Assembly: GCA_964016885.1 (NCBI GenBank)
Contig: CAXHJY010000658.1
Coordinates: 1-64,000, forward strand
Length of the DNA stretch: 64,000 bases
Direction of reading: 5' to 3'
Source of the DNA: Eledone cirrhosa
Lineage: Eukaryota
Under the pieces are notes generated by a model. It saw only the letters and a program-made list of their open reading frames with translations, did not search any database and was not told the DNA's origin. Positions 3,732-6,242 of this stretch are shown in pieces; the stretch's first letter is position 1; every line of letters starts with the position of its first letter. The translations under genes were made by a program, and so were the position numbers.

Positions 3732-3792
3732 ATATATATGTAAGTATGTATGTATACGTACATACATATATGTATACAGACGTACAGTGGCA

Positions 3793-3842
<50 letters not shown>

Positions 3843-3992
3843 CAGGTACACATGCATATATGCACGTATCAGTTTAGCGGACGCTTATTATAACGCCGCT
3901 TTGTTCGTTTGTAAACAAACTGAACAGCCTGAATTTATGCCGTACGGTGTTAAGGCAACCACGTCACCTTTTTGTTCAACACTGACACAGGA

Positions 3993-4035
3993 ACGATGTA
4001 CTAGTTTCAAGCTTGTTAGCTATCATCAGCACCGT
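3993..4035 (-). ncRNA. Minimal type I HHR, array unit 1
   Basis: ACGGTG-CTGATGA-tAGCTaacaAGCTt-GAAA-CTAG-TA-CATCGT. Confidence 0.85.
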
Positions 4036-4271
4036 ATACCCTTCTGCCAGATGGTTGAACGTTCGAAAGTATATACTTTCCTTATGAAGATTAACGGCTG
4101 AACAGCCTAATTTGCATATCGAGTGAGTTAAGTCGGTCAGGCATACCGAAAACGATAAGTTGAAATAAAATGAAAACGAAATTTCATTTCTCACTCTTAG
4201 TACGGCACTTACTTAAATGTAAGTATGTATGTATACGTACATACATATATGTATACAGACGTACAGTGGCA

Positions 4272-4311
<40 letters not shown>

Positions 4312-4461
4312 CAGGTACACATACATATATGCACGTATCTTTTTAGCGGACGCTTATTATAACGCCGCTTTGTTCGTTTGTAAACAAACTGAACAGCCTG
4401 AATTTATGCCGTACGGTGTTAAGGCAACCACGTCACCGTTTTGTTCAACAATCACACAGGA

Positions 4462-4504
4462 ACGATGTACTAGTTTCATGCTTGTTAGCTATCATCAGCA
4501 CCGT
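4462..4504 (-). ncRNA. Minimal type I HHR, array unit 2 (weaker stem II)
   Basis: As unit 1 but AGCT/AGCA in stem II. Confidence 0.8.
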
Positions 4505-4740
4505 ATACCCTTCTGCCAGATAGTTGAACGTTCGAAAGTATATACTTTCCTTATGAAAATTTACGGCTGAACAGCCTAATTTGCATATCGAGTGTGTTAA
4601 GTCGGTCAGGCATACCGAAAACGATAAGTTGAAATAAAATGAAAACGAAATTTCATTTCTCACTCTTAGTACGGCACTTACTTAAATGTAAGTATGTATG
4701 TATACGTACATACATATATGTATACAGACGTACAGTGGCA

Positions 4741-4778
<38 letters not shown>

Positions 4779-4928
4779 CAGGTACACATACATATATGCA
4801 CGTATCTTTTTAGCGGACGCTTATTATAACGCCGCTTTGTTCGTTTGTAAACAAACTGAACAGCCTGAATTTATGCCGTACGGTGTTAAGGCAACCACGT
4901 CACCGTTTTGTTCAACAATCACACAGGA

Positions 4929-4971
4929 ACGATGTACTAGTTTCATGCTTGTTAGCTATCATCAGCACCGT
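4929..4971 (-). ncRNA. Minimal type I HHR, array unit 3 (weaker stem II)
   Basis: As unit 2. Confidence 0.8.
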
Positions 4972-5209
4972 ATACCCTTCTGCCAGATAGTTGAACGTTC
5001 GAAAGTATATACTTTCCTTATGAAAATTTACGGCTGAACAGCCTAATTTGCATATCGAGTGTGTTAAGTCGGTCAGGCATACCGAAAACGATAAGTTGAA
5101 ATAAAATGAAAACGAAATTTCATTTCTCACTCTTAGTACGGCACTTACTTAAATGTAAGTATGTATGTATACGTACATACATATATGTATACAGACGTAC
5201 AGTGGCATG

Positions 5210-5249
<40 letters not shown>

Positions 5250-5355
5250 CAGGTACACATACATATATGCACGTATCTTTTTAGCGGACGCTTATTATAA
5301 CGCCGCTTTATTCGTTTGTAACCACGTCACCTTTTTGTTCAACACTGACACAGGA

Positions 5356-5398
5356 ACGATGTACTAGTTTCAAGCTTGTTAGCTATCATCAGCACCGT
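5356..5398 (-). ncRNA. Minimal type I HHR, array unit 4
   Basis: As unit 1. Confidence 0.85.
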
Positions 5399-5812
5399 AT
5401 ACCCTTCTGCCAAATAGTTGAACGTTCGAAAGTATATACTTTCCTTATGAAAATTAACGGCTGAACAGCCTAATTTGCATATCGAGTTAGTTAAGTCAGT
5501 CAGGCATACCGAAAACGATAAGTTGAAATAAAATGAAAACGAAATTTCATTTCTCACTCTTAGTACGGCACTTACTTAAATGTAAGTATGTATGTATACG
5601 TACATACATATATGTATACAGACGTACAGTGGCATGCATATATATATATATATATATACATACAGGTACACATACATATATGCACGTATCTTTTTAGCGG
5701 ACGCTTATTATAACGCCGCTTTGTTCGTTTGTAAACAAACTGAACAGCCTGAATTTATGCCGTACGGTGTTAAGGCAACCACGTCACCGTTTTGTTCAAC
5801 AATCACACAGGA

Positions 5813-5855
5813 ACGATGTACTAGTTTCATGCTTGTTAGCTATCATCAGCACCGT
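5813..5855 (-). ncRNA. Minimal type I HHR, array unit 5 (weaker stem II)
   Basis: As unit 2. Confidence 0.8.
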
Positions 5856-6091
5856 ATACCCTTCTGCCAGATAGTTGAACGTTCGAAAGTATATACTTTC
5901 CTTATGAAAATTTACGGCTGAACAGCCTAATTTGCATATCGAGTGAGTTAAGTCGGTCAGGCATACCGAAAACGATAAGTTGAAATAAAATGAAAACGAA
6001 ATTTCATTTCTCACTCTTACTACGGCACTTACTTAAATGTAAGTATGTATGTATACGTACATACATATATGTATACAGACGTACAGTGGCA

Positions 6092-6149
<58 letters not shown>

Positions 6150-6242
6150 CAGGTACACATACATATATGCACGTATCAGTTTAGCGGACGCTTATTATAT
6201 ATATATATATACGTATATATATATATATATATATATATTTAA

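Follow-up and report, generated by a model that had tools for sequence, protein, structure and literature searches.

The retrozyme class, its circles and the hypothesis that Penelope-like elements (PLEs) mobilise it are already published (PMC7229834, PMC7761336, 10.64898/2026.07.22.740005). According to these papers, metazoan non-LTR retrozymes (LTR, long terminal repeat) are tandem units without an open reading frame (ORF), with one type I hammerhead ribozyme each, a GC content below 45%, a self-paired predicted circle and PLEs present alongside them in the genome. Two questions are described there as open (PMC7229834, PMC7761336), namely the identity of the retroelement that mobilises animal retrozymes and the way in which these are transcribed, and 10.64898/2026.07.22.740005 argues the PLE link from co-occurrence and similarity to PLE pseudo-LTRs (pLTRs) only. 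Here we describe a repeat family with all of these traits in Eledone cirrhosa, starting from an array on the minus strand at 3738..6199 of a 64,000-nucleotide stretch (contig CAXHJY010000658.1, positions 1 to 64,000; hereafter the window). We put at roughly 85% the probability that the array represents a single insertion of an ORF-less, high-copy non-LTR retrozyme, in other words a non-autonomous PLE, whose RNA is copied into (TA)n tracts by PLE proteins. Circles have been demonstrated for coral, mussel and axolotl retrozymes, and are only predicted for the family here. In a review, metazoan non-LTR retrozymes are described as lacking a promoter or any motif that points to a helper (PMC7761336); in contrast, the present family has a promoter-like block and PLE-type ends. 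It thereby supplies evidence for PLE enzymes at the level of individual insertions, together with a putative promoter inside the unit.

Three other systems are close to it. Endonuclease-positive PLEs such as Poseidon, Neptune and Naiad form partial tandems with an inverted, 5'-truncated copy and a tail of 30-40 bp that is often confined to one end, and are biased towards microsatellites (PMC8557442, PMC3846280); at AT-rich DNA a purified PLE protein, for which a dimeric form is predicted, nicks each of the two strands and extends it, initiating at two internal sites, which set the tail (PMC11167929). The family shares with them the partial tandems, the inverted truncated copy, the one-end tail, some inversion junctions at palindromes, the microsatellite target and two internal start sites downstream of the ribozyme, but it has no ORF and its tail is about 60 nt long. 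The non-autonomous PLEs of Chlamys, such as MRC1, are likewise ORF-less, multi-copy head-to-tail insertions moved by a PLE (PMC8557442). They generally share 3' sequence with an autonomous family, whereas no sequence partner was found for the family here, and the clade to which they belong is said to be without canonical hammerheads, whereas the hammerhead is complete here. Finally, newt satellite 2 and the schistosome satellite (PMC2220036, PMC7229834) are hammerhead repeats with an internal promoter, which is of small nuclear RNA (snRNA) type and read by RNA polymerase II (Pol II) in the newt and read by Pol III in the schistosome (PMC2220036), and with a weak palindromic stem III that needs dimers. 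The unit described here resembles them as a hammerhead repeat with a weak palindromic stem III and a candidate internal promoter. Our literature search, which left most subscription journals and repeat databases uncovered, returned no report of this family, of retrozyme insertion ends or of the coupled use of two sites; nor did we find a published listing of the family, although the supplements of PMC7229834 and 10.64898/2026.07.22.740005, which lay outside the search, could hold one.

The array, its family and the ribozyme

The array lies between host (TA)n tracts, one at 3558..3737 on its 3' side and a (TA)n-rich one at 6200..7114 on its 5' side, broken by other sequence near 6510-6680. First comes a 5'-truncated unit, starting at about unit position 107 (units are numbered from the predicted cut); the five cleavage sites then enclose four units, and the array closes with a partial one that ends at a position called site I below, merging into the host (TA)n at 3738..3748. 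Five type I hammerheads on the minus strand (5813..5855, with its predicted cut between 5819 and 5818; 5356..5398; 4929..4971; 4462..4504; 3993..4035) all fit the pattern ACGGTG-CUGAUGA-N14-GAAA-CUAG-UA, followed after the cut by CAUCGU. The predicted cleavage sites are 457, 427, 467 and 469 bp apart, and one of the four units carries a deletion of about 40 bp. The core pattern matches nine times in the window, against 0.24 expected, and 0 of 100 shuffles reach nine. The units have a GC content of 0.35-0.37; their longest ATG ORF on the ribozyme strand is 47 amino acids (aa), and a 133-aa frame on the other strand crosses a TA tract. An earlier sequence-only reading of this DNA had proposed an ORF-less tandem array with one hammerhead per unit, which is what we find. 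It had also called the unit somewhat long, but reported retrozyme consensus lengths span 51-972 bp (10.64898/2026.07.22.740005), and the unit is not unusual.

Within the 3.0 Gb genome, on both strands, the 31-nt ribozyme core pattern has 24,223 exact matches, 11,237 of them of the CUGAUGA type, and the reversed control has none. If each of these 24,000 or so cores represents about one unit, the family would make up some 0.4% of the genome by our arithmetic. Its copies are dispersed, from monomers to multimers, the window array being one insertion among them, and they fall into three diverged subfamilies: A, to which the window array belongs; B, with a 424-bp unit about 75% identical to A; and C, with a 465-bp unit, the same ribozyme topology, a GUU or GUC triplet and a site II end (loci L096, L131 and L196). 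Subfamily B is also present in the window, as a second array on the plus strand at 39604..40788 that ends at site II in (TA)n. It has hammerheads at 39636-39678, 40053-40095 and 40477-40519, the first of which is likely inactive, given GUG at its cut triplet. A short head-to-head fragment of subfamily A lies at 13323..13493, with its left end at site II in (TA)n, and degraded fragments of the family occupy 44443..44807.

The hammerhead has a stem I of 6 bp and a stem II that opens with a U.U mismatch, as in axolotl HHR_Amex2, followed by three pairs. The family form of stem II, GCUU (96% of 168 copies), is present in the motifs at 5356..5398 and 3993..4035; the other three window motifs have GCAU, and therefore lose one pair and keep two. 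Stem III is palindromic (ACUAGU), with 2 bp and a 2-nt loop. The complete type I ribozyme with palindromic stem III that had been described from the letters is thus confirmed, with a mismatch in stem II of all five motifs and one pair fewer in three. Short palindromic stems III impede cleavage of monomers and permit that of dimers (PMC4209133), and self-cleavage of a single unit as a monomer appears unlikely because stem III is so short. When a dimer was co-folded the minimum was not the active fold, a result that counts neither for nor against cleavage. An Rfam search of the window gave no family at gathering score, and the 150 listed of 166 weak matches to the array included no hammerhead model; the matches, all below gathering score, were TA-driven microRNA and similar families. 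The ribozyme call therefore rests on the consensus core together with covariation. In the same 168 copies, which were selected by flanking sequence and not by the core, the stem I pairs are kept in 96-99% and the core is intact in 143; one stem I pair swaps from G.U to U.G between subfamilies A and B (72 vs 84 copies), and subfamily C differs in stem I on both sides. From this conservation, the swap and the changes in C, we infer that the fold has been under selection.

Circularised units fold better than shuffles (25 for each), with z scores of -7.0 (A), -5.8 (B) and -12.3 (C), the antisense units scoring -3.3, -6.1 and -8.0, respectively. A stable self-paired circle is therefore predicted, owing in part to a purine-pyrimidine hairpin. 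Every unit of the window array has a long predicted hairpin with (TA)n at its apex (for example 4229..4338, minus strand), and subfamily C has no (TA)n run there. Thus the idea that the unit carries its own microsatellite is right for the internal (TA)n of subfamily A, but in the model this run looks like a feature of RNA structure at a hairpin apex rather than a passenger, and it is absent from C.

Insertion ends and the role of Penelope-like elements

The ends of the insertions supply evidence for PLE enzymes. A first set consisted of the window and 55 non-redundant loci picked by the ribozyme core, with 81 ribozyme-bearing arms (arms without a ribozyme were excluded). Sixty-eight of these arms end at a fixed internal site, 35 at site I (about position 249 in A, 218 in B) and 33 at site II (about 311 in A, 277 in B); of the remaining 13, four break in the TA tract and nine end elsewhere. 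The two sites are about 60 nt apart and neither is the cleavage site. The tail between them measures 59-62 nt and is present in every full unit, one example in the window being 4155..4221 on the minus strand. (TA)n adjoins 62 of the 68 site-ending arms, subfamily C copies likewise end at the equivalent of site II, and exact site II/TA junctions number 420 for A and 3,808 for B. The 5' ends, by contrast with these fixed 3' ends, are variable and scattered along the unit (158 ends).

The first set contained 34 head-to-head pairs. In 21 of them both ends fall at a site, and all 21 (20 independent) combine one site I with one site II, an outcome with a probability of about 1e-6 if the sites were chosen independently; the other 13 have an end that is broken, lies elsewhere or meets the locus edge. 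Two further sets, chosen by a site II end and sharing few loci with the first, comprised 65 A loci (70 fetched) and 87 B ends (90 loci). The inverted partner ended at site I in 25 of 33 A cases (site II in one, other in seven) and in 35 of 38 B cases (site II in none, other in three), so that together 60 partner ends were at site I and one at site II. In the single exception, L325, the same flank borders the insertion left and right, which suggests an inverted duplication at a later time. Palindromes underlie some head-to-head junctions (L147, L160, L035), and arm length can differ within one insertion (3 vs 8 segments at L147), a structure better accounted for by two separately primed cDNAs than by one fold-back. 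The one-of-each pattern is the 'tail at one end' of PLEs. In vitro, according to PMC11167929, the PLE start sites show no strand difference, whereas in this family they are coupled, one of each per insertion. Mobilisation by a PLE, suggested by the sequence-only reading, thus gains direct backing from the ends. The coupled use of two start sites is moreover a sharp prediction for a dimeric enzyme, and the family, which has thousands of independent insertions, makes available a substrate of 0.45 kb that is free of ORFs for the study of PLE tandem and inverted structures.

How the window array reached its present size has to be considered separately. Its units have private variants common to three or four of them, and of 40 copies scored elsewhere the best reach 97% identity; therefore the array probably grew in part through local duplication after insertion, and its five units need not equal five turns round a circle. 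Such duplication, like the TA lengths that differ between units, is what an ordinary satellite or minisatellite would show if it had spread by DNA-level recombination and carried a fossil ribozyme. However, the copies are dispersed and short, have fixed 3' ends, variable 5' ends and head-to-head inversions, and their ribozyme covaries across subfamilies. As an origin of the family this explanation is largely refuted, and we hold it to be very improbable.

The anatomy of the unit, with a ribozyme followed by 250-310 nt and a 3' end, equals that of a pLTR, and the copies could derive from a single autonomous PLE, as pLTRs or 3' ends that became detached, if copies of it with an ORF escaped sampling. 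Xenopus retrozymes do resemble pLTRs (10.64898/2026.07.22.740005), and the ATGCAAAT octamer of the unit also stands upstream of another ribozyme family in L089. Yet in the arms examined, what lies upstream of the ribozyme is further unit sequence up to the point of truncation, as expected of the free arrays of a retrozyme family that had been proposed, and not of pLTRs attached to an ORF. Furthermore, a PLE protein match lies near 47 of 247 loci, and the four junctions inspected cross TA tracts or unrelated DNA. We regard this origin as improbable, although less so than the satellite one. Least probable of all is a SINE-like element (short interspersed element) moved by an RTE or other LINE (long interspersed element) protein, or an RNA replicon propagated by RNA-to-RNA replication: LINE copies are present in the genome, TA-rich 3' flanks can mimic LINE tails and the antisense strand also folds well, but no tRNA or tRNA-like head was found in the repeat unit and no hammerhead core on the strand opposite to the ribozyme, and the 3' ends are internal to the repeating unit, in the paired I+II pattern of PLEs. 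Given that no hammerhead core was found on the opposite strand and that the copies look like products of target-primed reverse transcription, the 'circRNA replicon' of the sequence-only reading is not upheld.

Several results weigh against a retrozyme moved by PLE proteins. Among 49 PLE loci, no helper PLE showed convincing homology to the unit outside TA-rich stretches and nested copies of the family, the one weak unit match (E 0.003) being at L089, and neighbour counts revealed no PLE family enriched beside the repeat. The tail of 59-62 nt exceeds the 30-40 bp quoted for PLEs, although a PLE family of this genome, mentioned below, has TA-flanked ends still farther apart. The private variants shared among the window units are not expected from one circle copied once. 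Stem II is weak and lacks the G10.1-C11.1 pair, and eight of nine predicted Xenopus retrozyme dimers did not cleave in vitro (10.64898/2026.07.22.740005). In addition, for an anole PLE in vitro, ribozyme cleavage is dispensable and uncut RNA is the main template (PMC11167929); therefore circles are not required.

Potential enzymes are abundant in the genome, which holds more than 10,000 GIY-YIG candidates (150 scored) and PLE ORFs with reverse transcriptase and GIY-YIG of up to 1,096 aa. Long uninterrupted PLE ORFs at L081 (938 aa), L083 (1,096 aa) and L084 (636 aa) are helper candidates. Several PLE families of the genome also end in (TA)n, and one has TA-flanked ends about 89 nt apart. The best named matches to one PLE protein come mostly from bivalves and those to a LINE protein from a mixture of marine invertebrates, so that these matches by themselves do not bear out the cephalopod source which the sequence-only reading had thought probable. 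A Neptune-like family (L099) had appeared as an enriched neighbour of the repeat and was rejected, being equally common in controls (6/69, 4/90, 4/51).

Template RNA and promoter-like block

Cleavage sites are crossed by 35 of 66 A arms and 45 of 87 B arms, and 5' ends gather neither at the cut nor at the predicted start; therefore the insertion template runs without a break over the ribozyme junction, whether as a ligated circle or as an uncut multimer. A genomic footprint of cleavage had seemed visible in three or four 5' ends that lie at the cut, but in the first 100 of 992 junction rows, counted by eye, 7 of 29 loci fell within 5 of the 30 nt around the cut (p 0.20) and this footprint was rejected. 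A pile-up at the predicted start was not reproduced either (B 4/44 vs 1.7 expected, p 0.08; A 1/32), and the clustering of five B ends shortly before the ribozyme did not recur in the second set. In multi-unit loci, both arms pooled, differences are mostly private and units agree at family-polymorphic sites (in subfamily A, 4 of 153 variable sites are common/common). This agreement fits one unit copied repeatedly, and also a homogeneous donor array.

The read-through of the cleavage site is also what a non-autonomous PLE without a circle would allow. Here an uncut multi-unit transcript would serve as template, and the hammerhead would be a pLTR feature that was inherited and has, at most, some other use; this departs from the retrozyme reading in the circle step only. 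The use of uncut RNA by the anole PLE speaks for it, as do the alternation of two unit types in L173 and the mixture of subtypes in three of 14 B loci (L176, L177, L292). On the other hand, most arrays are of one subtype, and 5' ends are not piled at the predicted start as a linear transcript might produce. We consider it a serious contender at somewhat less than even odds, and give circles as the template an even chance.

Each unit contains a promoter-like block, TATGCAAATTAG ... TATATA, at 5889..5938 on the minus strand and repeated at 5432-5481, 5005-5054, 4538-4587 and 4069-4118. All three subfamilies retain the arrangement of TATGCAAATT(A/G)G with a TATA-like box 41-42 nt downstream. In this genome RNase MRP and three distinct U6 loci have TATGC(A/T)AAT(T/G)AG at -76 to -78 and TATA at -30, the best U6atac locus has a one-mismatch version of the element at -78, and some other U6 and U6atac matches, which may be pseudogenes or disrupted copies, are without it. 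By analogy with the host U6 and MRP genes, transcription could start near 5865, 47 nt before the cut. A matrix built from the four genes scores A, B and C, on the ribozyme strand, above 2000, 1996 and 2000 of 2000 shuffles, respectively, and gives no score to the unrelated family D described below. Unlike that of the newt and schistosome satellites, the block resembles U6/MRP promoters of its own genome. However, its spacing to the TATA box is about 5 nt short of every host gene (41-42 vs 46-48 nt), and by eye no host distal element is seen at the matching position in the units. Pol III as the source of the insertion template is doubtful, since B units have a T6 run just before site II and B insertions include sequence beyond it. 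Because the spacing is short, T-runs would stop Pol III and the octamer precedes another ribozyme family, the block may instead be a Pol II pLTR promoter. That it works as a promoter at all is a proposition we favour slightly. Contigs of the repeat occur in four sequencing runs whose kind is not recorded, which counts neither for nor against expression.

Host small-RNA promoters were compared at L101, L102, L103, L217, L348 and L121-L137. Those of the Pol III type have an octamer-like element at about -77 and TATA at -30. The promoters of U1 and U2 are built from other elements, with TCAGT near -57 and, at -30, a box that is likewise TATA-like, and several host small-RNA promoters carry a TTACCTCCCTT-like element near -260. 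A further repeat, family D (L185:5846-7601 and L178:1-1500), is an unrelated 310-bp hammerhead repeat with near-identical units and a palindromic stem III, ACGCGU. Its arrays are TA-flanked and head-to-head like those of the retrozyme family, and its elements match the spacing of the host U1/U2 promoters (distal element at -257, CCAGT at -57, TATA at -30). As judged from its sequence, it is probably a retrozyme of very recent origin that has captured an snRNA promoter of the Pol II type.

We propose the following scenario. A multi-unit RNA would be made, possibly from the promoter-like block in each unit; by analogy with known retrozymes, two hammerheads would pair via the palindromic ACUAGU and cut at GUA to give unit-length RNA, which a host ligase would close into circles. 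A PLE reverse transcriptase-endonuclease, probably as a dimer, would nick both strands of a (TA)n tract, and reverse transcription would start, one start per strand, at two fixed sites about 60 nt apart, which are the end positions observed. Each cDNA would extend through the ribozyme junction, ligated or uncut, for a distance that varies, yielding the partial tandems seen, and the two cDNAs would join head to head, sometimes at palindromes, as the observed structures suggest. Some arrays, probably including that of the window, would later expand through local duplication. A more ambitious version is a self-promoting retrozyme lineage that captured a snRNA-type promoter and whose RNA is cut and circularised, a PLE dimer docking on one structured domain and making two cDNAs, one per nicked strand, with family D having captured a complete U1/U2-type promoter independently. 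This we advance tentatively, as rather unlikely in its entirety. If true, a dimer with two coupled start sites would account in general for the inverted repeats of PLEs and for their 'tail at one end'.

Other retroelements and hammerheads in the window

The window also contains PLE remnants; the clade names that we use for PLE fragments (Neptune-like, Poseidon-like) are assigned provisionally from cysteine motifs, not from a tree. The 3' ends of one PLE family, at 7116-7620 (plus), 34050-34345 (plus) and 52590-52900 (minus), finish in (TA)n and carry a hammerhead with a long stem II at 7435-7475, 34154-34195 and 52747-52787; the GIY-YIG fragment of this family has a CNC..CPL..C motif and is Neptune-like. 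Two related PLE families have left 3' ends with minimal hammerheads at 26200-27640, 42600-43700 (minus), 35500-36280 (plus), 38700-39300 (minus) and 2280-2640 (minus), and two of these ends, around 26925-27328, lie on either side of a single TA tract. At 34760-34790 (minus) an isolated hammerhead core, canonical in appearance, represents a further family, and an inverted repeat with arms of roughly 170 bp lies at 41020-41332, just downstream of the subfamily B array. A reverse transcriptase fragment at 2627-3085 on the minus strand (PF00078, E 1e-15), with breaks nearby, is apparently a LINE remnant. Elsewhere in the genome, an RTE-like LINE at L008:21-1391, which has a PHD-type finger, is open over 457 aa in its 3' part, and a retrozyme insertion directly adjoins it in the LINE tail.
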